DNA of 64,000 nt from Candidatus Aenigmatarchaeota archaeon (GCA_016193585.1 JACPRW010000003.1:263303-327302); one strand, 5' to 3'. Counted from the first letter of the stretch, positions 9,529 to 35,029 are shown. Program-made: numbers and translations. Notes: generated by a model from the letters alone, not told the origin.

Positions 9529-9970
9529 AGGCCAGCTCTTTCTGGGCGATTTCGTCGTCGCGGTATTCATATTCGCAATCGTGCTTGCTATGCTGGCTGT
9601 GTCATGGGACACGGTTATGGAACGGTACAGCAGTCAGTCTGACGTGCAGGAAATGGAGCTGAAGGCAGCGTGGATTGCCGATGCGATGCTTACATCGGGA
9701 AAGCCGTCAGGATGGGAAAACAGCAACACAAGCGTCATCGGGCTCGTCGACCACGACCGGACGATAAGTCCGGCGAAGCTTGCCGCGTTCAGCGCAATGG
9801 ACTATAACCAGAGCAAGCGAGTCATGGGCGTGCAGGGGTACGAGTACTTTTTCAGCCTGCCCGCAAGCAACGTGACAAAGGGCGACCGCGGCGGCAGCAC
9901 GCGCGCCTTTGCCCGGCGCGTGGTCATGTACAACGGGGTTGAGTATCTTGAATTCATGCTATGGAAGTAA
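9518..9970 (+). CDS. Pilin-like protein
   Basis: MSAKGQLFLGDFVVAVFIF; start reassigned to ATG 9518. Confidence 0.8.
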   Translation: MSAKGQLFLGDFVVAVFIFAIVLAMLAVSWDTVMERYSSQSDVQEMELKAAWIADAMLTSGKPSGWENSNTSVIGLVDHDRTISPAKLAAFSAMDYNQSKRVMGVQGYEYFFSLPASNVTKGDRGGSTRAFARRVVMYNGVEYLEFMLWK

Positions 9971-10361
9971 GGGATTCGCGTTCACAGCGGACATGATGCT
10001 CGCAGCAGGCTCGGTCATGCTCATGATTGCCGTTGTGTACGCAATCTCCTTCGGGCATCCGCAGGAATTCCAGGCGCGGCGCACTGCGGCGGATATCGTC
10101 GCGCTTCTCGATTACACGCAGGTGCTCGACACGTTCAACAGCACCGCCATAGCGAACAACCTCACGGCGTACACGCCGTCCAACATGCGGCTCGGCATGA
10201 ACATAAGCCGTTACACAACAGCAGGAACGTTCGACAGCAGCATAGCAGTCATGTACGAAATGAACGGGACATTTTCTGCAGGCAGATGGTGGTTCGTTTC
10301 ATTCGCCGACAAAACAGTTGATGCATTCTACATAGTCGATTACAGGGTGACGCTCAAATGA
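9948..10361 (+). CDS. Pilin-like protein
   Basis: SKGFAFTADMMLA prepilin motif; start codon uncertain (TTG 9948 assumed). Confidence 0.65.
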   Translation: MNSCYGSKGFAFTADMMLAAGSVMLMIAVVYAISFGHPQEFQARRTAADIVALLDYTQVLDTFNSTAIANNLTAYTPSNMRLGMNISRYTTAGTFDSSIAVMYEMNGTFSAGRWWFVSFADKTVDAFYIVDYRVTLK

Positions 10362-10377
10362 GATGCATGAATAATCA

Positions 10378-10623
10378 TATAGTGAACCAAGTAAATAATC
10401 AGGTATTATAGCAATACAAGGAAATAAACAGGATATATTACTTCCTTGTTTGCTATATGTGAAACAAGAAGCAATATGCCGATGTTATTTTCTTGTTTCA
10501 CTATATAGCTTGGTTCACGTACACCCAAAAAGCAAAGCTTTTTGGTGCACCGGAAAACCTTGTTTTCCGCGTGTAGCGGACAACAAAAGTAATATGTCGG
10601 TATTCTTTTGTTGGTCCACTATA
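10378..10623. repeat. Nested composite repeat: A split by B (10407-10457) + C (10454-10505), then X1 (10522-10573) and D (10574-10623)
   Basis: Each module recurs elsewhere or shares the consensus; junctions are TA/TATA. Confidence 0.9.
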
Positions 10624-10719
10624 AAGCAGGCTTGGTGTTCTGAAAATGAAGTCTCGAGGAAATAAAAGAAGACTTCTTTTCAAAGACACCGTTTATGAGA
10701 TGCATGTGGTGCTCTGAAA

Positions 10720-11562
10720 ATGAAAGGCATTGTGCTCGGCATCGGCGTGCTGCTGCTTGCTCTCGTGCTGTTCAGCATGGCATTCATGCTCGCCGAGAGC
10801 AGCGGCCGCAAAAGCAGGGACATCGACAGGCTGCATGTTTTCGACCGGCTTGACGACGAACTGAAAGCAACGGAAAACGCCTACCGTGATATCGTGGGCA
10901 AGGCAATCATCATTTCCAGGGGCAACCGCACCGTGTTTTTTAACGAAACGCTTCCCAGCGGCGATGCGGCAAGTTTCACGGCGAACGTGGACAACTTCAG
11001 GGCATTTGTCGGGAGTCATTCCCAGTTTGCCATGAAGCTGGATATGAGCCAAGTGACATCAACGCTGCCGCTTACCATACGTCCTGCAGGCGTTCGCTAC
11101 GACCACCCGAGCGGATTCGGCAACGGCACCATCGACATAACGAATGCGCAGGCGGTTCTGCGCTACAATGTGAGCATCCTTGTCAACAGGTCGCATAATA
11201 CCCCTACAAAATGGAAAGACGGACCTAACGTTGATACAAATGGCATTGGATTTGATATCACCATCAGCCACAATGGCGGTACTGATTTTGCCTATTCAAA
11301 CAAGCTGAGCACAACACTGCCTTCCGCCATTGAGATAAAGCTTCCCGGAGGAAATAACGAAATAACCATTACCATAGGGAATGCAAGTATGCCAGGCATG
11401 CTGCATATTACAAACAATGACGCCACCATCCGCGCGTTTGTCGCCGTCAACATGACCGTGAACACGACGGACCTTATTTCCGTCAATTTTCCCGAAAAAA
11501 GTATTAATATGACGGCCCCTGAATATAACATCAGCAAGCTGGACGCGGTGCGAGTTGACTGA
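10720..11562 (+). CDS. Pilin-like/secreted protein of the pilus locus
   Basis: MKG plus hydrophobic N-terminus, Asn/Thr-rich beta domain. Confidence 0.75.
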   Translation: MKGIVLGIGVLLLALVLFSMAFMLAESSGRKSRDIDRLHVFDRLDDELKATENAYRDIVGKAIIISRGNRTVFFNETLPSGDAASFTANVDNFRAFVGSHSQFAMKLDMSQVTSTLPLTIRPAGVRYDHPSGFGNGTIDITNAQAVLRYNVSILVNRSHNTPTKWKDGPNVDTNGIGFDITISHNGGTDFAYSNKLSTTLPSAIEIKLPGGNNEITITIGNASMPGMLHITNNDATIRAFVAVNMTVNTTDLISVNFPEKSINMTAPEYNISKLDAVRVD

Positions 11563-12133
11563 CATGCCAAAACAGCAGGACGAGAAGCTGAAGAAGCTCG
11601 AGGACGACCTGAAGGAGCTGGAGCGCCGCATCGAAGGCGAGATCAGCGACACGAGGCGGCGTGTGAAGGACGACATGCAGCAGCTCGAGGCTTCGTTCAG
11701 GACATTCAGGGACGTGATGAAGAAAATCTACGAGGAGAAGAAGGAACTCGAGAAGGACAGGGACTTCCTTCTCGAAAAGCACAAGGAACTGCTCCGCAAG
11801 CTGCCGCTGCAGGTAGCAGCAGGCGTGCAGGAGAAGCTCGTCGCGCCGGTGCAGCAGGCAATCCAGGAACAGGCGGATTTCATCACAGTAGCTGCCAAGG
11901 GAGGCGATGAGGCCCAGAAGGAAACGACGCCCATCGACGAGCTGTTCGCGTATGTCGCCAAAAACGGCAAGGTCAGGGTGAACGAGGCTGCGAAAAAATT
12001 CAACGTGCACGAGGTTCGCATCGAGGAGTGGGCAAAAATACTCGAGGAGCACGGGCTCATTGAGGTTCATTACCCGCCATTCGGCAAGGCCGAGCTGCGG
12101 AAAGCGCGGATAGAAACCGCCGCAGCGAAATAA
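11555..12133 (+). CDS. Coiled-coil protein with C-terminal winged-helix-like domain
   Basis: 192 aa; IEEWAKILEEHGLIEVHYP; precedes the pilus ATPase. Confidence 0.7.
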   Translation: MTDMPKQQDEKLKKLEDDLKELERRIEGEISDTRRRVKDDMQQLEASFRTFRDVMKKIYEEKKELEKDRDFLLEKHKELLRKLPLQVAAGVQEKLVAPVQQAIQEQADFITVAAKGGDEAQKETTPIDELFAYVAKNGKVRVNEAAKKFNVHEVRIEEWAKILEEHGLIEVHYPPFGKAELRKARIETAAAK

Positions 12134-23385: not shown

Positions 23386-24660
23386 TTATTGCTGCGTGAG
23401 CGCCTGCAGTTCCTCGAGGTTGATGCGTATCTCCCGCTCGCTGCCCGATGCCATGTCCTTGAGCTTCAGTTTGCCCTGCTCCAGTTCCTTTTTGCCGACG
23501 ATGATGACATTCCGGACGTTGAGCTTGTTTGCGTACTCCATCTGCTTCCTGAGGTCGCGCCTGCTGAGGTCCATGATTGCGGGCAGGCATCTCTTCCTGA
23601 GCGCCTGCACGACATTTACGGCGTCGGCAAACATGTCGCCGGTGGCATAGGCGACAAAGTACTGGTCGGCGGCGATGGTCGCAGGCAATAGTTTCTTGGC
23701 TTCCAGTGTGATGAGGAGGCGCTCGATGCCGCCGGCAACGCCAGTTGCGGGCATCGGCTTGCCATAGATGCTGAGCAGGTCATCGTAGCGCCCGCCGCCG
23801 GCGACAGCACCTGTCTTCCCGTCGACCCATGCCTCGTAGACGGTGCCGGTGTAATAGTCGATGCCGCGTACGATGCTCAAATCAAGTGTACATCTATCCG
23901 CAATCTTGTACGTCCCGAGGAGCGCGAAGAGCTGCTCCAGCTCCTTGTAACCTTCCTGCGCCAGCTCGTTCTTCGGCATCGTCGCTTTCACGGATTCGAG
24001 CGTGGCGCCGCCTTTGCACAGCGTGAGAATTGCATCCGCCTGTTTCTTGCCAACATCACATTTCGCGAATTCCTTGATGAGCTGCTGCTTGCTCAGTTTC
24101 GCCGTCTTGTCGATGACGCGGAGGACGGCCGCGAGCCTCTTCTTGTCGATGCCAATGCCGAGCACGAAGCCCTCGATGAGCTTGCGGTTGTTGATGCGTA
24201 TCTGGGCATCAAGGCCAAGCCCTTTGAACGCCTCTATCATGAGCGCGATGATTTCCGCGTCAGCTTCCGCGCCCGCGCAGCCATATACCTCGGCGTCCCA
24301 CTGCCAGAACGAGCGGTAGCGGGCGTACTGCGGGTTGTCGTAGCGCCACATGTTCGAGATGCACGCAAGGCGCAGCGGCTTCGGCGCGTCCGTCGAAGCA
24401 ACGTAGCGTGCCATGCCGACAGTGAGGTCGAAACGCAAACCTATTTTGCGTTTCGCTTTATCCTCGAACGCGTATATCTCCTTTTCGAGGTCAGGCCCGC
24501 TCTTCGCCGTGAGCGTTTCCAGGTTCTCCAGCGCCGACGGCTCGACGAGCTGGAAGCCGAAGCGGCGCAGCGCGTCCTTCAGCCTGGCGACGACGTATTC
24601 CCGCTTCGCCATCTCGTCAGGCGCAATGTCCTTCATGCCTTTGGGCAGGGTGAATTTCAT
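23386..24660 (-). CDS. hisS: Histidyl-tRNA synthetase
   Basis: LRFDLT, RYRSFWQWDAE, RGIDYYTG, GGGRYDDL, GIERL, anticodon-binding domain. Confidence 0.95.
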   Translation of the reverse strand: MKFTLPKGMKDIAPDEMAKREYVVARLKDALRRFGFQLVEPSALENLETLTAKSGPDLEKEIYAFEDKAKRKIGLRFDLTVGMARYVASTDAPKPLRLACISNMWRYDNPQYARYRSFWQWDAEVYGCAGAEADAEIIALMIEAFKGLGLDAQIRINNRKLIEGFVLGIGIDKKRLAAVLRVIDKTAKLSKQQLIKEFAKCDVGKKQADAILTLCKGGATLESVKATMPKNELAQEGYKELEQLFALLGTYKIADRCTLDLSIVRGIDYYTGTVYEAWVDGKTGAVAGGGRYDDLLSIYGKPMPATGVAGGIERLLITLEAKKLLPATIAADQYFVAYATGDMFADAVNVVQALRKRCLPAIMDLSRRDLRKQMEYANKLNVRNVIIVGKKELEQGKLKLKDMASGSEREIRINLEELQALTQQ

Positions 24661-25886
24661 TGCTTCATCAACCTCATCACGGCTGATTTTTTGTGGGCAT
24701 CAAGCCCTTCCACTTCGGCCAGTTGTATCGCCTGCTTGGAAACCGTGTCAAACCCCTTTCTTGTTACATATTGCCCGGCGCGTATTAAAATAAAGTCCTT
24801 TACCGAGAGGACGGAGGAAAATCGTGCGCTCCCTCCGGTAGGCAGGATGTGGTTCGAGCCGGTGACGTAATCGCCCAGCATATTTGCCGAGTAATAGCCG
24901 GCAAAGAGCGTTCCATAGTTCCTCAGTCCTCTATATTTTCTTGGGTCTTTTACTTGGAGTTCTATGTGTTCAGAAGCCAGCTCGTTAGCTAGTCGAACTG
25001 CTTCTCCGGCAGTTTTCACGAGGATGATTTTCAAGTTGCTTTGCACCGCGCTTCGTGCAGTCCTGCTGGTCTTTAATCGCTTCAGCTGTTTGGTTACCTC
25101 CTTTCCGGTTTCACGTGCTACTGTCTTCGAATTGGTGATGAGGACAGGCACGGCATCTTCGTCGTGCTCTGCTTCAGAGAGAAGATCCGCGGCTACTGCA
25201 CCGGAATCCGCGCTTTCATCAGCGATGACAAGTATTTCGCTCGGTCCTGCAAGCATGTCAATGCCGACATCTCCGTAGACGAATTTCTTCGCCGCTGTCA
25301 CGAATCTGTTGCCAGGACCGGCAATTTTGTCGACTTTTGGGATTGTTTCCGTGCCGTATGCCATGGCTGCGATGGCATGCGCCCCGCCTACCCTGAAAAT
25401 TTTTTGGACGCCGCACAGGTCAGCTGCTACAAGGATAACGGGGCTTATGGAACCTTTGTACGATGGCGGGGAGCACAGTATAATTTTCTCGACTCCGGCG
25501 ACCGTTGCAGGGACAGCAGCCATGATGACGGTTGACGGAAGCGGGAAGTTTCCTCCTGGAACGTATATGCCTACCCTCGCTACAGGTATCGTCTTTTGTG
25601 TTATGGTGACGCCCTTAACAATCTGCAGTTCAAAATCGCCGAATTGCCGCATCTGCCTTTTTGATAGCTTCTCTACGTTTCGTTTTGCAAGCGTTAGCGC
25701 CGCAAGCGTTTCCTTCCCGACCTGCCCGTACGCAGCCTCTATTTCTTTGTCCGTGATTTCTAGATTCTCCAGTTTAACCTTGTCGAATGTTTCTGTAAAT
25801 TTGAGCAGCGCTTTATCTCCTTTTTTCTTCACTTCGCGGCAGATAGACGAAACTAATGCTTCTTGTTGCAGGCTCTTCCGTTTCAT
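24657..25886 (-). CDS. hisD: Histidinol dehydrogenase
   Basis: GIYVPGG, GPGNRFV, AGPSEI, EAEHD, HILPTGG. Confidence 0.97.
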   Translation of the reverse strand: MKRKSLQQEALVSSICREVKKKGDKALLKFTETFDKVKLENLEITDKEIEAAYGQVGKETLAALTLAKRNVEKLSKRQMRQFGDFELQIVKGVTITQKTIPVARVGIYVPGGNFPLPSTVIMAAVPATVAGVEKIILCSPPSYKGSISPVILVAADLCGVQKIFRVGGAHAIAAMAYGTETIPKVDKIAGPGNRFVTAAKKFVYGDVGIDMLAGPSEILVIADESADSGAVAADLLSEAEHDEDAVPVLITNSKTVARETGKEVTKQLKRLKTSRTARSAVQSNLKIILVKTAGEAVRLANELASEHIELQVKDPRKYRGLRNYGTLFAGYYSANMLGDYVTGSNHILPTGGSARFSSVLSVKDFILIRAGQYVTRKGFDTVSKQAIQLAEVEGLDAHKKSAVMRLMKQ

Positions 25887-27064
25887 TTTCTTCTCCCCCC
25901 GAGTTCGTTCATCACATCCCTGAAACTGATCCCGGTCTTGGCCGCCTTTACTGTAGTAAAGTACACGAGGTCAGCCAGTTCATGAATGAGTTGCTCTTTC
26001 GTTCCGGCGGTCGTGACTTCCTCGGACTCTTCAATAATTTTTTTGTCGAGCTCTTCATCGGTAAGCGAAGACGTATAAGAGCCTTTTGTGGGGTTCTGGA
26101 GCCTGTTGAGAACAATGCCGTAGAACTCTTGCATGCCGAATGCTTTATTCCCGAAACAGGAATAGCTGCCGGCGTGGCACGCGACGTTTTTCTGCTCCAC
26201 GGTGAAAAGCAGCGCATCGCTGTCGCAATCCTTGCGCAGTTCCACAAGTTCCTGAAAATTCCCTGATGTTTCGCCTTTTGTCCACAGGCGTTTTTTTGAC
26301 CTCTTGTAATACGTCGCCTTTCCTGTAGCGATGGTTTTTCGTATCGAGTCCTCGCTGCTGTACGCAAGCATCAAGGGCTGCCCTTCGCTATCCTGCACAA
26401 GCGTCGGGATAAGGCCATTATCAAAACGGAGCGTCTGGATGAAAGCCTCGGTAAGGTCAAGAACTCCGGACGCACGCGCCATGCCTACGACCGCATTTAC
26501 CCCGCGTGCTTCTATCTCCTGTATCTGGCCGGGTGATGAAATGCCACCTGCGATAGTTATTTTGCTTTTTATCGTTGCTGCCGCATTTTGCACAAAAGAC
26601 GTGTCGTAGCCTTCAAGCGTGCCTTCTTTGCTGACATCGGTAAAAAGAAATTCGGAGCAGTACGGCTCGAGAGCCTTCGCTTTTTCTATTGCGCGTGCTT
26701 TCTCTTCTTCGCCGTTGACGTCGAAAGCGGCAATGATGCAATCCCGCGGCAAACGACGCAGGAACTCCTCCGTAGCCATCGTTCCGATGATAATCTTCCC
26801 GGCCCCTGCTTTGAGTAACGCTCTCGCCTTTTCTTCTGTTCGTATGCCCCCGCCGACGCGGCATCGTGCTGCCTTGCAGAGTTCCTTCACCAACTCAAAA
26901 TTATCTCCTTTATTCAAGGCTGCGTCGAGGTCGATGACCTGAATCTCCCCGAACAATTTGAGCTTTTCAGCTATTTCAATAGGATCGCCGATGTCCACCC
27001 GTTCCTTCCTCCGGACAAACTGTACCGCTGTGCCGTCCATTATGTCGATAGCCGGGATGATCAT
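25883..27064 (-). CDS. hisA-hisIE: HisA-HisI-HisE fusion protein
   Basis: IIPAIDI..VIDLDAA (HisA), [20 protein letters not shown] (HisI), [13 protein letters not shown] (HisE). Confidence 0.9.
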
Positions 27065-27816
27065 AGTCTCACCAGTATGCCGCGTTTCCTGAGGTATTCC
27101 TTCACTTCCTGTATCCTGTATCGTCTGTAGTGGAATATGGAGGCGGCAAGTGCCGCATCGGCGCCCCCCTCCAGAAACACGTCGGCAATATCCTTCAGCG
27201 AGCCGGCTCCGCCAGACGCAATCACCGGTATCCCCACCGATGTGGCTACCGTCCTTGTCAGTTTGATGTCGTAGCCGCCAGTAGTTCCGTCAGAATCCAT
27301 GGACGTCAGGAGTAGTTCTCCTGCGCCAAGATTTTCAGCCTGCCGCGCCCATGCTATTGCGTCGAGCCCTGTATCTTCTGTCCCGCTCCTGGTGAAGACT
27401 TCCCACCTTCTGTTGCACTTTTTTGCATCGATGGCGACAACTACCGCCTGCGAGCCGAATTTTTCCGCCGCCCGTTCTATGATGCGGGGCTTTTTCACTG
27501 CCGCGCTGTTTATGGAGACCTTTTCAGCCCCCGCGTCAAGCAGGCGGCGCATGTCAGCGATGCTCCGTACGCCGCCGCCGGCGGTGAACGGGATGAAAAG
27601 GTTCTTTGAAACGTTTCTCATGATATCCACCATCGCAGTTCTTTTTTCGAGCGATGCTGTTATGTCAAGGAATACCAGCTCGTCGGCGCCTTCGTTGCCG
27701 TACAACCGGGCTAGCGCCACCGGGTCGCCGGCGTTCCTCAGGTTCGCAAAGTTAATTCCCTTCACGACCTTGCCGTCTTTGACGTCGAGGCACGGTATTA
27801 TCCTTTTAGTCAGCAT
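27061..27816 (-). CDS. hisF: Imidazole glycerol phosphate synthase cyclase subunit
   Basis: [29 protein letters not shown]. Confidence 0.97.
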
Positions 27817-28390
27817 CCAACCACCGTGCAAGTATCTCCAGACCGAACGCGCCGCTTTTTTCAGGATGAAACTGTGTCGCCATTATGTTCCCTCGCTTGA
27901 CAGCGGAAGCGAATGGTATGCCATAGTCACTCGTTGCCGCTACAATTCCCTTGTCTTCTGGTAGCGGATAATAGGAATTGGCGAAGTAGGCAAATCCTTC
28001 CCGGAATGGTTCTTTTTTCACCGGCCTGACGAGATTCCAGCCAACCTGCGGCACTTTGCCTTTCCTGAACTTGACTACGCTTCCTTCCAGTATGCCAAGG
28101 CCCCGTATACCAGGGCTTTCCTCGCTCGCCTCAAACAGCACCTGCATGCCGAGGCATATGCCGAAAAATGGCACGCCATTTTCGAGCGCCTTGGTGAGCG
28201 GTCCGATGAGGCCTTTCCTCTCAAGATTCTTCATCGCGTTGCCAAAAGAGCCCACTCCCGGAAAGATTATTTTCCCTGCTGTTGCCACGGCTTTTTTCCC
28301 CGACGTTATGGTGCTCTCAAAACCAAGGTAACGCAGCGCATTCTCAACGCTCCTTGCGTTCCCTGAGCCATAATCTATTATTGCTATCAT
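27806..28390 (-). CDS. hisH: Imidazole glycerol phosphate synthase glutaminase subunit
   Basis: [22 protein letters not shown]; start reassigned to 28390 (ATGA overlap with hisB). Confidence 0.96.
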
Positions 28391-28977
28391 TCGATAACGC
28401 CCTTCGTGCTCGGAATACCATTCAGAAGCTTCTTGTCGCGCGAGCACGCCATGTACAGCGCTTTTCCGAATGCCTTGAACAGCGCCTCGCATTTGTGGTG
28501 GTCGTTCTCCCCGTACGGCATCGTTGCGTGCAGCGTTGCCTGCAGGCCCCTGGTAAACCCCTGGAAAAACTCCTGTATGGTGTCTGCTTCGAGGTCGCCA
28601 ATTTTCGGCCGCCTGAATTTCACGCCAAAATTCAGGTACGGCCTGCCCGAGATGTCAACAGCTACCAGCGCGAGGGATTCGTCCATGGGGAATGCGAAAT
28701 AGCCGGCGCGGTTTATCCCCTGCTTGTTTCCCAGTGCCTCCCTGAACGCTTGCCCAAGGGCTATGCCGCAATCCTCTACTATGTGGTGCTGGTCCACGTC
28801 CATGTCTCCTGTCGCTTTGACGCCGATGTCAAATGCCCCGAAAAGAGAAAATGTTTCCAGCATGTGTCTGAGGAAGCCTATAGGCACGTCCAGCTTTGAT
28901 TTTCCAGAGCCTTCGATAACCAGGGAAATTTCTACCGACGTTTCAGACGTGGTTCTTGTAATTTTTGCAGGCATCAT
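28387..28977 (-). CDS. hisB: Imidazoleglycerol-phosphate dehydratase
   Basis: RTTSET, DQHHIVED, NDHHKCEA. Confidence 0.96.
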   Translation of the reverse strand: MMPAKITRTTSETSVEISLVIEGSGKSKLDVPIGFLRHMLETFSLFGAFDIGVKATGDMDVDQHHIVEDCGIALGQAFREALGNKQGINRAGYFAFPMDESLALVAVDISGRPYLNFGVKFRRPKIGDLEADTIQEFFQGFTRGLQATLHATMPYGENDHHKCEALFKAFGKALYMACSRDKKLLNGIPSTKGVIE

Positions 28978-30665
28978 TTCAGCACCTCGCTCAACCTGGC
29001 CACGTCATCCAGAACGTCTTTTGCGCCCTCTCTGAGAAGCAGCGTTTTCGTGATACTGTCCGAAGTCACGCCTATTGATTCGATGCCGGCATTTTTGGCA
29101 GCGATGATATCCTCCACGGAATCGCCTATGTAAACTGCAGAGGCGACGCCGATGCTGGTCACCGCAAGCTGTATGCCGTACGGGTCGGGTTTCAGCCTGT
29201 CGCCGACATCATCCATCGCAATGAGCGTTTCGAAAAGTTCTTTGGTTCCTGCAGACTGCAGGGCGTACAGCGCCTCTTTTTTCGGCCTTCCGGTGACCAC
29301 GCCCAAGGCGTATCTCTTTTTCAGCGAAATGAGAAGGTTCCTGTCAACGAGCCATCGTTCATTTGTCTTGTAGCTTGAATAAAATTCCTGGAATTTCCCA
29401 ATAACAGTCTTTAGTTCAGGCGCACAGACTTTTCTTCTGATGAGCTCGAATGACAGTTTCCAGTCGTTGTTGTAGTTCCCCGTGTTTTTCAGCGATCGTA
29501 TCGCTTCGTCGGTCGGGTACGTGCCGGTGAAGAATTTGACCGTTTCTTGTATGGATTTTCGGTACGATCCGCCGACGTCAACGAGGATGCCATCCATGTC
29601 GAACAGGATCGCCCTGCTTCTGAGGACTTCTCTGAGCGTCTTCAGGAACCGGCTTGCCTGTTCTTTTGTCCCAACCCCGATCCTCAGGAACCCCTCAAGC
29701 ATGGGGTAGCCTGAAACGTTCCTGACAAGGATGCCCCTGCTTTTCAGGCCGCTGAAAACGTAGTCGCAGTTAATGCCGAAATCCGCAAGAAGAAAATTCG
29801 CGTCGGTCGGGAATGTTTTTATTCCGAGATTCCCCATTTCTTCGGACAAAAAATTCTTTGCATCGCTGACTTCTTTGACATAACGTTCTACAAATTCCAC
29901 ATCGTCAAGTGCAGCAGTCGCAAGCTTTGCTGCAACGCTGTTCACGCTGTACGGGGAGGCAGCCTTCCGCACGTAGGACATGTTCTTTCTGTTTGAAATA
30001 ATGTAGCCGATGCGCAGCCCGGCAAGACCGAAGGCCTTCGAGAACGTCTGAATGATAATCAGATTCTCAAATTCATTTATTTTTCCCTTGAAACTGTTCC
30101 CTGCATATTGATAATACGCTTCGTCGAGAAGGACAATGGCATTTTTTGCCTTCTTGATAATTGCTGTAATGACAGCATCGTCAACCGACGTCCCTGTGGG
30201 GTTGTTAGGATTGACGAGAATCACCATTCTTGTTTTGCCGGTTATGGAATCAAGGAATTTTTCTCCGGGGAATGAAAGGTCTTTCTGGTAGGGAATTTCT
30301 CTTATTCGTGCCCCTGCGATGCGTGCGTAGAACCCGAACATGGCAAAGGTTGGCACTGCGAGAACCACCTCGTCCCCCTTTTCAAGGTAGACGTCCATGA
30401 CGAGTTTTATCGCCTCGTCGCTGCCGTTTGTCGGAATTAGTTCTTCTTCGCTGAGCGACAGGTAATTTGCCAGTTTTCTAGTGAGCGCGCTGTATTCCGG
30501 ATACGCCGAAAGCTCTTCGGAGGTTATTTTACGCAGCGCTTCCATGGCCTTTGGCGAACAACCTGCAGTATTCTCGTTGAAGTCAAGCCGCAACGCTCCC
30601 AATCTCCCGGTATTCGGAGGCTTGTAGGGCTCCATCTTTATTATGCACTTCTTAGGCTGAACCAT
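28974..30665 (-). CDS. hisC: Histidinol-phosphate aminotransferase fused to a HAD-family phosphatase
   Basis: LDFNEN, NPNNPTG, DEAY, TFSKAFGLAGLRIGY followed by FDMDGILVD..TGRP..KP.P..YIGDSVED. Confidence 0.92.
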   Translation of the reverse strand: MVQPKKCIIKMEPYKPPNTGRLGALRLDFNENTAGCSPKAMEALRKITSEELSAYPEYSALTRKLANYLSLSEEELIPTNGSDEAIKLVMDVYLEKGDEVVLAVPTFAMFGFYARIAGARIREIPYQKDLSFPGEKFLDSITGKTRMVILVNPNNPTGTSVDDAVITAIIKKAKNAIVLLDEAYYQYAGNSFKGKINEFENLIIIQTFSKAFGLAGLRIGYIISNRKNMSYVRKAASPYSVNSVAAKLATAALDDVEFVERYVKEVSDAKNFLSEEMGNLGIKTFPTDANFLLADFGINCDYVFSGLKSRGILVRNVSGYPMLEGFLRIGVGTKEQASRFLKTLREVLRSRAILFDMDGILVDVGGSYRKSIQETVKFFTGTYPTDEAIRSLKNTGNYNNDWKLSFELIRRKVCAPELKTVIGKFQEFYSSYKTNERWLVDRNLLISLKKRYALGVVTGRPKKEALYALQSAGTKELFETLIAMDDVGDRLKPDPYGIQLAVTSIGVASAVYIGDSVEDIIAAKNAGIESIGVTSDSITKTLLLREGAKDVLDDVARLSEVLK

Positions 30666-31236
30666 TGGCACCACCGATGACAAGAAAGTCGCTCCCGAAA
30701 ATCTTCTGGTAAACCTGCAGCTTGTTGTCCCTCATCGAATCGCCTGTATACACTATGTCGATAACGAGGTCGGAAATCCCTTCCGCGCATGCCATTTCCA
30801 CGCAGCCATTGAGGTACGTTTTCCTGAACGTGTAGCCCTGACGCTCAAGGGCATTGAGAAATCTCCTCGACATATTTTTGTATTTCGCGTTTATGCAAAC
30901 CGTAGGAATCGGAGGCACGTCGTCAAGGCCCTTGCCTTCCGGTCCGAGCAGACAGAGCGTTGGCTTCCCGAACATGGCGCTTGGGTCATTCCAGACAATT
31001 CGTTGTACGACAGAGAGCCCGCCTCTCCTGTTTCCCAGGCACCATTCCCTGTACAAGTCCTCTCCAGTGAGTCCCAATGTTTGCTTTCCCAGACTCGAAA
31101 ACTCGTATACCAATGACGGGACGTCCTCTCCCCTCGCCTCTATTATCTTGCTTCCGTTGATGTCCATGGAAGAGAGGGCTATTTGCCGGTATGCTCTGAG
31201 GCCGCTGTTTTTCGGGACGACTATTATGGAGTTCAT
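30652..31236 (-). CDS. hisG: ATP phosphoribosyltransferase, short form (divergent)
   Basis: RGEDVP, GLTGEDL, KY, GCVE, IDIVYTG; first gene of the operon. Confidence 0.85.
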   Translation of the reverse strand: MNSIIVVPKNSGLRAYRQIALSSMDINGSKIIEARGEDVPSLVYEFSSLGKQTLGLTGEDLYREWCLGNRRGGLSVVQRIVWNDPSAMFGKPTLCLLGPEGKGLDDVPPIPTVCINAKYKNMSRRFLNALERQGYTFRKTYLNGCVEMACAEGISDLVIDIVYTGDSMRDNKLQVYQKIFGSDFLVIGGANGSA

Positions 31237-31242
31237 GAAACA

Positions 31243-31464
31243 TCACGTTTTCAGGGACGCAGCCGGGAATTGAACCCGGGATAAAGGATTCACAGCCCTT
31301 TGTGTTTTCACTACACCACCGCAGCCATTGGCAACAGTAAAAGAGACGTAATCTCCAGAAGCAAGCCCCAGGGACCTTCGTATGTCTGCCGGGACGAATA
31401 CCCTGCCCTTCGCGTCGAGGCAGTATCGTCCGTTGCCGGAGATGACTACCCTGCGATTGGGCAA
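31243..31464 (-). CDS. AbrB/MazE/SpoVT-like DNA-binding protein whose 3' end reads through a tRNA-His-like sequence
   Basis: LDAKGRVFVPADIRRSLGL..GDYV motif; TTG start. Confidence 0.6.
   Translation of the reverse strand: MPNRRVVISGNGRYCLDAKGRVFVPADIRRSLGLASGDYVSFTVANGCGGVVKTQRAVNPLSRVQFPAASLKT
31255..31326 (-). tRNA. Second, intronless and atypical tRNA-His(GUG)
   Basis: G-1:C73, AAGGG-CTGTGAA-TCCTT anticodon arm, CCGGG-TTCAATT-CCCGG T-arm; C2.U71 mismatch and D-loop lacking GG. Confidence 0.75.
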
Positions 31465-31713
31465 ATCAGCAGAAAACGATGCAGAAGGAAAACTGCCCTT
31501 AAGGCGTGCAGGGACATAGATTCTGCCGCGGTCGTCAATCTTCGCGGAAAACGTCCGGGCGGCAAAGCTAGAGAAATCGCGCTTCAGATTGCCGCGCTTA
31601 CTGCAGGTGAAGGCACTCGCCTGTGGGGTCTATCAACTCTCACTGGTAACACCTTCCATTCCTTACCGCACAGTTCTACTTAAAGATTTTGTGGGTAAAT
31701 GGTTGTGTTTACT

Positions 31714-31808
31714 TATAGTTAACCAAGTAAAGAATCCGGATATTATAACTTGGTTCACTATATGTGACCAACTTGTGTAATACCTGAATATTAAGTTGGT
31801 CAGCTATA
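31714..31808. repeat. Two single-hairpin modules: A' (31714-31762) + J (31759-31808)
   Basis: TATAG...CTATA termini, shared TATA junction, AATNCNGGATATTAT-like loop. Confidence 0.85.
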
Positions 31809-31923
31809 AAGGTTGATTTTTCCCATGTTAAAAAATTGGTTGTTTCGTTGTTTTTTGTTAAATTTTCGGTTACATAAAGTAGAATTAAAAGGTTTATGAT
31901 TCATGTAATAAAATCTGATTTTA

Positions 31924-32706
31924 ATGACAAAATTAAATCTCATACGTCCTTTAGCTTTCATTGACTTAGAAACTACTGGTCTCAATACGCAACAAGATCG
32001 TATTGTAGATATATGCGTAACAAAAATTTACCCAGATGGAAAAGAAGAATCATTGAGTTCTTTTATTAATCCAACTATACTGATTTCTGTTGAAGCTACA
32101 AATATCCATGGCATAACAAATGCAGATGTTGAAGGTAAACCAGTTTTTGGAGAATTTTCATCACAATTATTTGATTTTATAGATGGATGTGACTTGGCCG
32201 GATTCGGAATAATAAAGTTCGATTTTCCTGTTCTTGAATCTGAATTCAAGAGAGCCGGAATAGTTTTTTCAAAAGATGGCAGACAAATAGTCGATGTTCA
32301 AAATATTTATCACAAATTAGAACCCAGAGATTTAAGTGCCGCACACTTAAGGTACTGTGGCAAGGTTTTAGAAAATGCACATAGAGCACAGTCCGATGTT
32401 AAGGCAACTATAGATGTGCTTGAATCTCAATTGGAACACCACACTAATTTGCCACATGATATTTTCGGTCTGAATGAATTTTGCAACCCGAAAGACCCTA
32501 CGTGGATTGATGAGGACGGAAAATTTGCATGGTTTAAGGACGAGGCTATTGTAAATTTTGGAACTCACAAAAGCAAGACACTTCAATCTATATGTAGGGA
32601 TAAACCTGACTACCTTCAATGGATTATAAGTAAAGATTTCTCACCGAAGGTCAAACAGATAGCTGAAGACGCCCTTCGAGGCAAATTCCCAATACGGCAA
32701 GCATAA
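31924..32706 (+). CDS. DEDDh 3'-5' exonuclease (DnaQ/PolIII epsilon-like), AT-rich
   Basis: FIDLETTG, FD, HRAQSDV; far more AT-rich than neighbours by eye. Confidence 0.92.
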   Translation: MTKLNLIRPLAFIDLETTGLNTQQDRIVDICVTKIYPDGKEESLSSFINPTILISVEATNIHGITNADVEGKPVFGEFSSQLFDFIDGCDLAGFGIIKFDFPVLESEFKRAGIVFSKDGRQIVDVQNIYHKLEPRDLSAAHLRYCGKVLENAHRAQSDVKATIDVLESQLEHHTNLPHDIFGLNEFCNPKDPTWIDEDGKFAWFKDEAIVNFGTHKSKTLQSICRDKPDYLQWIISKDFSPKVKQIAEDALRGKFPIRQA

Positions 32707-32820: not shown

Positions 32821-33073
32821 ATTATAATACATTTGGCATGCTGGTACACGCGCTCAATCATGATCGCGCTATTATGGAGCGTGTGCTGAATGAGATGTAT
32901 GAAATAAACAATTGGAAAGAGAGAAAAGGGCTAAAAGCCGAATGCTGCAAGAGTACTTCTGTCCAAATCGACATGATGCCGAGTTACTGAAAAAAATTCT
33001 TCCGGATATATTCCCACTTTTCACTCTCATACGCTCGGCGCGCTTTTATTACAACGGGAAGCTAATACTACGC

Positions 33074-33715
33074 ATGTTCTCGCTTTCGCCGACGGCGCTC
33101 AACGAGTTCCGTGACTGCCCGCTGTGCTTCTGGCTGCACCGGAGGAAAGGCATCGCTTCTCCCGGCGGCCCCTTGCCGACCATCACCAACGGCTTGGACC
33201 GCGTCATCAAGGAGTACATGAACCGTTACCGTCCGCGCGGCAGCATCCCGCCGTTCCTCGAGGGTAAAGTTCCGGGAAGGCTCATTGAGTTTCTGCCCGC
33301 GACGCTCGCGTGCAGCATCGGCGGCAATACGCTTTCCGGCAGGCTCGACGAATGCCTCGTCATGGACAGCGGCAACCACGCGCCGCTCGACCACAAGACG
33401 CGCGGATTTGCGCTCAAGGACGGCCATGAGGTGCACCCGTCGTACCAGCTGCAGATGGACTGCTATGCGCTGCTCCTGCAACGGAGAGGGCATGCCATCG
33501 GCGACGAGGCGTTCATCGTCTACTACTATCCTGATTTCGGCGAACTGCACCAGGGCATCCCCTTCAGGGTGAGCGTGCACCGGCTCAGGACGAATCCGCG
33601 CCGCGCGGAACAGGTGTTCGCGGATGCGGTAGCGTGCCTGCAGGGAGAGAAGCCCGAGCCCGGAGCCGGCTGCGGCCTGTGCGCGTACGTGGGCGAGCGG
33701 TTGCAACCTTCTTAA
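33074..33715 (+). CDS. PD-(D/E)XK nuclease (RecB/Cas4-like)
   Basis: LSPTALNEFRDCPLCF, GRLDEC..LDHKT, QMDCYA, CGLC; start reassigned. Confidence 0.85.
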   Translation: MFSLSPTALNEFRDCPLCFWLHRRKGIASPGGPLPTITNGLDRVIKEYMNRYRPRGSIPPFLEGKVPGRLIEFLPATLACSIGGNTLSGRLDECLVMDSGNHAPLDHKTRGFALKDGHEVHPSYQLQMDCYALLLQRRGHAIGDEAFIVYYYPDFGELHQGIPFRVSVHRLRTNPRRAEQVFADAVACLQGEKPEPGAGCGLCAYVGERLQPS

Positions 33716-34930: not shown

Positions 34931-34931
34931 G

Positions 34932-35029
34932 GGCCGCTGCCGAGATTTGAACTCGGTCCGAAGGCTCACCGCAGCACGTTCGCCAAGTGCATCCACAGGC
35001 CTGCATGCTGCCGTTACACCACAGCGGCC
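34932..35029 (-). tRNA. tRNA-His(GUG), canonical intron (34967-34992), encoded G-1
   Basis: Acceptor GCCGCTG/CAGCGGC, loop CTGTGG|A, BHB CTGT/GCGG. Confidence 0.9.

Follow-up and report, generated by a model that had tools for sequence, protein, structure and literature searches.

DPANN archaea are generally portrayed as lacking amino-acid synthesis. A fusion of HisA/F with HisIE has been mentioned in passing for DPANN genomes (PMC11237513). In bacteria, the short form of ATP phosphoribosyltransferase (HisGS) is, according to two studies, catalytic alone, while HisZ activates it and mediates inhibition by histidine (PMC9734150, PMC10795190); HisZ has been described as bacterial only (PMC9437257). 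Histidinol phosphatase is the commonest remaining gap according to GapMind 2026 (PMC13759103). Among archaea, nmHisN of Nitrosopumilus is encoded between hisC and hisB (PMC10804674), and disruption of the Haloferax haloacid dehalogenase (HAD) gene HVO_0431 led to histidine auxotrophy (PMC8305020). Here, a window of 64,000 nucleotides from Candidatus Aenigmatarchaeota archaeon (GCA_016193585.1, JACPRW010000003.1:263303-327302) was analyzed, and positions are counted from the first letter of this whole stretch. On its minus strand, from 31326 to 23386, it carries a histidine operon in the order tRNA-His, mini-hisG, hisC::HAD, hisB, hisH, hisF, hisA::hisI::hisE, hisD and hisS. The operon is probably a working histidine-synthesis "supra-operon" that was vertically inherited and belongs to a type that a minority of DPANN archaea share.

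The genes from hisG to hisS had been listed in an earlier note made from the DNA alone. Pfam and NCBIfam identified every one of them, all on the minus strand, which establishes the gene identities (Table 1). The same databases returned the domain matches of both fusions named in that note; in the hisA::hisI::hisE product, HisA covers approximately residues 1-205, phosphoribosyl-AMP cyclohydrolase (PRA-CH) residues 232-304 and phosphoribosyl-ATP pyrophosphohydrolase (PRA-PH) residues 312-389. For hisC, translation probably begins not at the listed TTG but at an ATG a few codons further in. All seven junctions between the eight open reading frames (ORFs) overlap, in keeping with the overlapping or adjacent stops and starts described earlier. 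In ORF coordinates the overlap is 4 nt at hisC/hisB, hisB/hisH, hisF/hisA::hisI::hisE, hisA::hisI::hisE/hisD and hisD/hisS, and the hisG/hisC and hisH/hisF junctions overlap as well. The upper coordinate, 31326, is G-1 of a tRNA-His(GUG) gene that the earlier note had not named. Its end is separated from the hisG ATG by a gap of 17 nt, which would leave no room for a separate promoter. At the other end, the ORF beyond hisS is convergent, so that hisS is the final gene of the unit. From the overlaps and the 17-nt gap, we infer that the whole unit is probably co-transcribed; a single transcription unit would run from an AbrB-like ORF and the tRNA-His leader through mini-hisG to hisD and then hisS.

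The pathway was complete, as had been proposed, with a candidate enzyme for each of the ten steps of histidine synthesis. In addition, the host genome (1.17 Mb in 10 contigs, 90.75 % complete) contains a gene for phosphoribosyl pyrophosphate (PRPP) synthetase. Recycling of the by-product 5-aminoimidazole-4-carboxamide ribonucleotide (AICAR) is represented by one AICAR-transformylase domain protein and two PurP genes. The host had been called DPANN-like, and the proteins of one genome of the same family (G219) and of one of the same phylum (G345) are indeed deposited as "Candidatus Aenigmarchaeota archaeon".

Other Aenigmarchaeota and dozens of metagenome contigs show the same architecture, with both fusions, the tRNA-His leader and hisS at the end. 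Genome G345, which belongs to another order, has tRNA-His, mini-hisG, hisC::HAD, hisB, hisF, hisA::IE, hisD and hisS in the same order, and close variants are found in G275 and G337 (proteins of these three genomes 45-60 % identical). When metagenome contigs were scanned with a mini-HisG profile, 80 loci were obtained. A same-strand tRNA-His lies within 300 nt upstream of mini-hisG in 41 of the 65 loci with enough upstream DNA, and hisS is downstream of hisD in 10 of the 13 metagenome operons whose sequence extends 2 kb or more past hisD, nine times within 77 nt. Of the related loci, 24 have hisA::IE as a fusion and one has it split; a search of genome contigs with the HisA::IE protein returned only two HisA-HisIE fusions from Clostridia, at 28 % identity. 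Homologues of mini-HisG and HisC::HAD carry the names Woesearchaeota, Aenigmarchaeota, Nanoarchaeota, Micrarchaeota and Diapherotrites. The genes are already named routinely by database annotators. In the literature searched, neither this operon type, nor a his operon that ends in hisS or is led by tRNA-His, nor a mini-HisG family was found described. The operon is a member of a widespread DPANN operon type that is apparently undescribed.

Within the phylum the complete operon is rare, since HisD is found in 8 of 371 species-level genomes and the HisA::IE fusion in 4 of 371, this one included; about 1 % of these genomes keep the full operon. Many other genomes of the phylum keep single his genes beside hisS, and this pattern records a stepwise loss from a biosynthetically richer ancestor. 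A his gene lies within 150 nt upstream of hisS in 23 genomes of 11 families (short HisG-like 9, hisD 5, hisI 4, long hisG 3 and other 2); this tally is a count and not a frequency, as the presence of his genes was the reason for fetching these loci.

Genomes of the phylum without the rest of the pathway keep one intact his gene directly upstream of hisS, which in five that were checked is the only histidyl-tRNA synthetase (HisRS) gene. This statement is confined to Aenigmarchaeota genomes that were searched whole. Metagenome hisG-hisE-hisS modules were also considered as pathway-less remnants and were withdrawn because the rest of those genomes is not visible. The lone hisD of two genomes of the same family (G219 and G220) is under purifying selection, with a ratio of nonsynonymous to synonymous substitution rates (dN/dS) of 0.18 at a dS of 0.48, and a HisD on its own could turn scavenged histidinol into histidine. 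One further hisD-hisS locus (L099) has tandem hisD paralogues upstream of hisS, the second being very divergent (branch of 4.6 in the HisD tree).

The first enzyme of the pathway, which we call mini-HisG, is encoded by an open frame of 196 aa. It scored 66.7 bits on the TIGR00070 equivalog (cut-off 75.75). More than 120 homologous proteins of 187-210 aa were found with 47-57 % identity, and those that are named come from Woesearchaeota, Aenigmarchaeota and Nanoarchaeia. An alignment of 43 members has 26 invariant columns, and both GLTGED (the G-x-T-G-x-D motif) and the PRPP loop DLVIDIVYTGxS are invariant or nearly so. The AlphaFold2 model of mini-HisG (predicted local distance difference test, pLDDT, 91.6; predicted template modelling score, pTM, 0.86) has the two-domain, periplasmic-binding-protein-like fold of the catalytic core. 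At least the top 49 Foldseek matches of this model in the PDB are all HisG (best template modelling score, TM, 0.78, E-value 7.6 × 10−16, approximately 20 % identity), so the HisG fold of the predicted structure can be regarded as established. The N-terminal segment is shortened. The C-terminal, histidine-binding regulatory domain of the long-form HisG (approximately 290 aa in all) is absent, as mini-HisG stops at residue 194, directly after the catalytic core.

The earlier note had also described a short HisG without HisZ. When the host genome was searched, its single PF13393 match was hisS; the same profile was detected in all 14 control genomes, including the HisZ-bearing Lactococcus and Thermotoga. 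The 90.75 %-complete genome has a single HisRS-family gene and a single HisG, and so no hisZ. Mini-HisG is therefore a bare catalytic core with neither a regulatory domain nor a HisZ partner. The HisS of the operon is a histidyl-tRNA synthetase by its class II motifs (motif 2, WRYD; motif 3, GGGRYD), its histidine-binding HisA motif (RGIDYYTG), its anticodon-binding domain PF03129 and its equivalog score; it is above the cut-off on TIGR00442 and reaches 223 bits on TIGR00443 (cut-off 271.65). HisZ is marked by missing aminoacylation motifs or a missing anticodon-binding domain, and neither is missing in this protein.

How such an enzyme would be regulated can be read in two ways. The most likely reading, with which about half of our confidence lies, is that mini-HisG acts as a stand-alone enzyme. 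This is plausible because bacterial HisGS is catalytic without HisZ, according to the two studies cited above. In this case control would have moved to transcription and to coupling with the expression of tRNA-His and HisRS.

The main alternative, possible though doubtful, is that HisRS itself is the regulatory partner of mini-HisG, so that a genuine synthetase would play a HisZ-like role and the first step of the pathway would be tied to histidine and to the charging status of tRNA-His. The absence of HisZ, the sole HisRS of the genome and the presence of hisS in this operon and in most related operons are all consistent with it. At least nine Aenigmarchaeota genomes without HisD have a short HisG-like gene within 150 nt upstream of hisS. 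The five genomes in which hisS was found to be the only HisRS belong to these, and imidazoleglycerol-phosphate dehydratase (IGPD) was absent in five genomes searched, three of which are shared with the former five. The HisG-like genes of the HisD-less genomes keep the motifs that bind substrate (GITGxD, Glu and the SGKT-type loop). However, lone hisD and lone hisI adjoin hisS equally often, and the linkage may thus reflect operon remnants and not a contact specific to HisG. Furthermore, HisG::HisC::HAD triple fusions (approximately 18 database proteins) tether HisG to a different protein.

A large clade of hisG-linked, HisRS-like proteins from Pacearchaeota and Nanoarchaeota also favours HisRS as the partner, as it lacks the motif-3 arginine (GGR[YF]D in 0 of 120). 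These proteins have 373-393 aa, carry Ser or Ala where class II enzymes have the motif-3 arginine, and show a deletion of approximately 6 residues; motif 2 and the histidine-binding HisA motif are kept in 119 of the 120. They are under the TIGR00442 cut-off and are annotated at NCBI variously as HisRS, "HisS family protein" or ATP phosphoribosyltransferase regulatory subunit. The clade was first taken as clear HisZ-like evidence and was then reduced to a lead, because it is a very large, conserved Pacearchaeota clade and may be their only HisRS.

A broader reading, which we offer only tentatively and think improbable as a whole, joins these observations. The genuine DPANN HisRS would act as regulatory subunit to a pared-down ATP phosphoribosyltransferase and so preserve the ancestral condition from which the bacterial HisZ presumably arose, and the motif-3-less proteins of Pacearchaeota and Nanoarchaeota would be an independent archaeal analogue of HisZ. 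As a related matter, HisG-like, HisI or HisD proteins encoded beside hisS in pathway-less genomes, downstream of an AbrB-like ORF and a tRNA-His leader, may have come to serve histidine or tRNA-His homeostasis instead of biosynthesis. A HisRS that partners HisG, if true, would bear directly on the origin of the HisZ paralogue.

Further fusions of mini-HisG were observed in DPANN: HisG::HisC::HAD proteins of 750-790 aa, HisG::HisE (L165), HisG-like::HisI (L071, G281) and HisG::HAD (L115). The proteins P0126, P0133, P0141, P0142, P0151, P0164, P0232 and P0233 are listed with them. HisG therefore tolerates other tethered partners.

The HAD domain fused to HisC was proposed in the earlier note to supply the HisN activity, and this is very probably correct. 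By its context and fingerprint residues, it is well supported as a putative histidinol-phosphate phosphatase of the archaeal nmHisN/TIGR01548-like kind. Its nearest family is TIGR01548, and the runner-up family scored 71 bits. The domain sits between the HisC domain and hisB, the position reported for nmHisN (PMC10804674). Fused or free-standing, it stays within his operons: of the fetched loci, 32 have it joined to HisC, 5 have a separate match beside hisC and one (L115) has it joined to HisG. At least 90 % of 102 HisC::HAD fusion proteins conserve the HAD core motifs I-IV (FDxDG, TGR, K-P-x-P and GDxxDD). The same level of conservation applies to Ser-Tyr-Arg just after motif I, followed by Lys and then Asn-Asn-Asp-Trp. 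Their spacing is compatible with the published cap fingerprint of archaeal HAD histidinol phosphatases, Y24, D25 (Arg in "cluster II"), K56 and E64/D (PMC10804674), and PDB entry 6iah can be aligned to the domain over this stretch.

Gene trees were made for HisD, HisS and HisC::HAD. The sister group of the operon's HisD is the HisD of G219 and G220, two same-family genomes with lone hisD-hisS remnants (Shimodaira-Hasegawa-like approximate likelihood ratio test, SH-aLRT, 97), and HisS is sister to that of same-family genome G007 (SH-aLRT 100). One metagenome lineage (L127) is in the nearest clade of both the HisS and the HisC::HAD trees (SH-aLRT 96 each). The HisS and HisC::HAD trees agree on the nearest lineage, and no tree that was incongruent with those of the neighbouring genes or with the relatives was found. 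We conclude that the whole unit, including hisS, is old in the lineage and was lost piecemeal in most relatives, and that the block was not inserted before a resident hisS.

Such an insertion was the reading of the earlier note, in which a horizontally acquired biosynthetic block was placed in front of the native hisS, and it is unlikely. The rarity of complete operons in the phylum would fit it. So would the identities. With other-order genomes, the his enzymes share approximately 50 % identity but HisS only 32-36 %, and HisS is 57 % identical to that of same-family G007. However, the operon belongs to a type that occurs across DPANN, and in it hisS comes last with a 4-nt overlap; the adjacency of a his gene and hisS extends over the 11 families, HisD is sister to same-family remnants, and the trees of HisC::HAD and HisS share their nearest lineage. 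A second, divergent and AT-richer tRNA-His that accompanies the operon would also fit insertion, but a comparison of identities was uninformative as to whether this leader travels with the operon, since it is 65-71 % identical to many tRNA-His genes, including 69 % to the genome's own second copy.

The biosynthetic genes had also been seen as more AT-rich than hisS and the flanking genes. They are indeed AT-richer than hisS, with a GC content at third codon positions (GC3) of 0.53-0.655 against 0.793, and this lower GC3 would fit insertion. As a mark of import it failed, because the seven biosynthetic genes are not outliers; they lie at the 16th-39th percentile of the genome's 496 long ORFs, and it is hisS, at the 93rd percentile, that is unusual. 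No deviation of the operon from the codon usage of the host was detected either (codon distance B at the 18th-72nd percentile of the same ORFs). In addition, hisS is higher in GC3 than the his genes beside it in 43 of 60 related loci, G345 and G007 among them. Thus, the offset is a property of the genes and not of their import.

It is very improbable that the operon is a decaying relic, with an inactive mini-HisG or shortened HisA domain in a histidine auxotroph like most DPANN: the HisA domain is below the TIGR00007 cut-off as mini-HisG is below that of TIGR00070, single his genes alone are kept in most relatives and the leader tRNA-His looks degenerate, but all eight ORFs are intact and translationally coupled, mini-HisG has its invariant columns and a confident HisG fold, genes for precursor supply and AICAR recycling are in the genome, and hisG, hisIE, hisD and hisS are under purifying selection in close pairs (dN/dS 0.08-0.18, confined to pairs with unsaturated dS, as distant pairs are saturated with dS >1.3 or undefined).

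Several points weigh against a working, vertically inherited operon. Mini-HisG is under the TIGR00070 cut-off, and the last residue of its predicted PRPP loop is Ser instead of Thr. The HAD domain is just under the cut-off of TIGR01548, and its likeness to nmHisN is drawn from published residue positions and not from a direct alignment. Co-transcription is read solely from the gene overlaps and the gap between tRNA-His and hisG. All trees were "quick" IQ-TREE runs with SH-aLRT as the only support. Complete operons are patchy in the phylum, which taken by itself would also fit transfer among DPANN. Lastly, HisS of one family (f39) groups with metagenome operons, and whole-module transfers, hisS included, may thus have happened elsewhere among DPANN.

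The leader tRNA-His is atypical, with a C2:U71 mismatch, a D loop without GG, and A37; its GC content is 55.6 %. A second, canonical tRNA-His(GUG) with 65.3 % GC is located 3.6 kb upstream of the operon and outside it. The leader region also contains the AbrB-like ORF, a candidate regulator or first gene of the unit, which overlaps the tRNA-His gene with approximately its last 27 codons. Such an ORF stands ahead of the tRNA-His/his/hisS module in many Aenigmarchaeota genomes. With a profile made from related ORFs, 52 were found in the fetched loci, and 30 of them lie on the same strand as, and within 400 nt upstream of, a tRNA-His, a his gene or hisS. In all nine loci with a tRNA-His, the frame stays open across the whole tRNA gene (estimated chance for one locus approximately 0.24). 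A second pairing was seen in many Aenigmarchaeota, where an AbrB-domain ORF of approximately 130 aa is found just upstream of a frame of approximately 330-400 aa with a weak-to-moderate PF01634 (HisG-like) match, unlinked to hisS. Beyond the leader, an AT-rich spacer filled with hairpin repeats separates the operon from two nuclease genes, and two large ORFs occupy the opposite flank (Table 1).

Table 1 Features of the histidine operon, its flanks and related loci (positions in the window unless a locus is named)
Feature	Position	Strand	Evidence or remark
AbrB/SpoVT(MazE)-like ORF, 73 aa	31243..31464	-	PF04014 21.9 bits, E-value 1.7e-4, below gathering score
Leader tRNA-His(GUG), intron-less	31254..31326 (31325..31254 + encoded G-1 at 31326)	-	ARAGORN; Rfam RF00005 48.4 bits
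mini-hisG, ATP phosphoribosyltransferase catalytic core, 194 aa	30652..31236	-	PF01634 65.1 bits (cut-off 25.5)
hisC::HAD, whole fusion gene, 569 aa	28974..30683	-	TIGR01141 302 bits; HAD domain nearest TIGR01548
hisC domain, histidinol-phosphate aminotransferase	29616..30683	-	TIGR01141 302 bits (cut-off 276.55), residues 14-353
HAD-IA domain fused to HisC, proposed histidinol-phosphate phosphatase	28974..29615	-	TIGR01548 130 bits (cut-off 140.2)
hisB, IGPD domain only	28387..28977	-	PF00475 200 bits; NF002111 246 bits, above cut-off
hisH, glutaminase subunit	27806..28390	-	TIGR01855 199.7 bits, above cut-off
hisF, cyclase subunit	27061..27831	-	TIGR00735 359.8 bits, above cut-off
hisA::hisI::hisE, 393 aa	25883..27064	-	PF00977 132 bits, PF01502 109 bits, PF01503 57.6 bits
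hisD, histidinol dehydrogenase	24657..25886	-	TIGR00069 498 bits
hisS, histidyl-tRNA synthetase, last gene of the operon	23386..24660	-	TIGR00442 357.7 bits, above cut-off; anticodon-binding domain PF03129
Second tRNA-His(GUG), canonical, 26-nt intron	34931..35028	-	ARAGORN with intron search; Rfam 44.2 bits
Two large ORFs, 432 aa and 638 aa	19764-23335	- (432 aa), + (638 aa)	No Pfam match
AT-rich spacer with hairpin repeats	31700-31920		
RNase T-like exonuclease	31924-32706		
PD-(D/E)XK nuclease	32912-33715		
AbrB/MazE-like ORFs ahead of tRNA-His/his/hisS module, Aenigmarchaeota	L044:156-437, L061:2251-2541, L063:5585-5863, L064:7490-7894, L069:7599-7907, L072:4338-4598, L092:751-1074, L096:1817-2089		
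AbrB and HisG-like pairs unlinked to hisS	L076:7226-7684, L078:1015-1419, L083:7326-7730, L086:8778-9203, L088:7177-7590, L089:7181-7576, L093:7015-7443, L094:5523-5972		
Lone hisD-hisS loci	L097, L098 (G219, G220)		
Further lone his gene-hisS loci	L099, L100 (G097, G146)		
Tandem hisD paralogues upstream of hisS	L099 (G097:C6), 9613-11872		
Lone hisI-hisS loci	L102, L104, L105, L109		
hisG-like-hisS loci	L051, L052, L054, L062, L065, L068, L072, L092		
Motif-3-less hisS-like genes next to mini-hisG	L164, L165, L175, L178, L179, L186, L188, L189		Proteins P0270-P0389

The operon raises the questions of how a 194-aa HisG works and is regulated with neither HisZ nor a regulatory domain, whether HisC::HAD fills the "missing" histidinol phosphatase step and how an amino-acid pathway is controlled together with its own tRNA and synthetase. 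The first of these is best seen against the HisGS-HisZ enzymes of Lactococcus lactis, Thermotoga maritima, Psychrobacter arcticus and Acinetobacter baumannii (PDB 1z7m, 1usy, 5m8h and 8oy0). Like HisGS, mini-HisG is a core without the C-terminal regulatory domain, has the same two-domain fold (Foldseek TM 0.70-0.73) and is linked to a gene of the HisRS family. Unlike HisGS, it is approximately 10-30 residues shorter, with the reduced N-terminal segment, is only approximately 18-23 % identical and has invariant motifs of its own, W82-x-D84 and the stretch around the invariant P92, C95 and G98. Moreover, the linked gene is not a HisZ paralogue but a real HisRS with intact catalytic motifs.

In the case of the putative phosphatase, the closest described enzymes are nmHisN (Nmar_1556) and toHisN with their "cluster II" euryarchaeal homologues (Kinateder et al. 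2024, PMC10804674) and HVO_0431 (PMC8305020). As in these, a HAD-IA enzyme is encoded between hisC and hisB. A Tyr after the DxD motif with an adjoining Arg as in cluster II, and a conserved Lys and a conserved acidic residue in the cap, appear to be shared with these enzymes. In contrast to nmHisN, the HAD domain is here placed on the C-terminus of HisC, and in relatives at times on HisG or HisG::HisC; it also falls short of the TIGR01548 cut-off.

The DPANN HisA/F-HisIE fusions reported as cluster 787.1 in "Fusion/fission protein family identification in Archaea" (PMC11237513) have the same domain order, HisA-HisI-HisE. That cluster came from four metagenomic assemblies, whereas the fusion was found here in the 24 fetched loci as part of a fixed operon.

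The operon of E. coli and Salmonella, hisGDC(NB)HAF(IE), is alike in that all steps are in one translationally coupled operon and that fusions join consecutive or related steps (PMC10138114); the terms hisS, hisZ and DPANN do not occur in that review of his operons. The gene order differs, and the fusions are N::B and I::E in the enterobacterial operon but C::N and A::I::E in the archaeal one. Instead of the His-codon attenuator of E. coli and Salmonella, the operon described here has a tRNA-His leader; it also has a terminal hisS and an AbrB-like ORF upstream.

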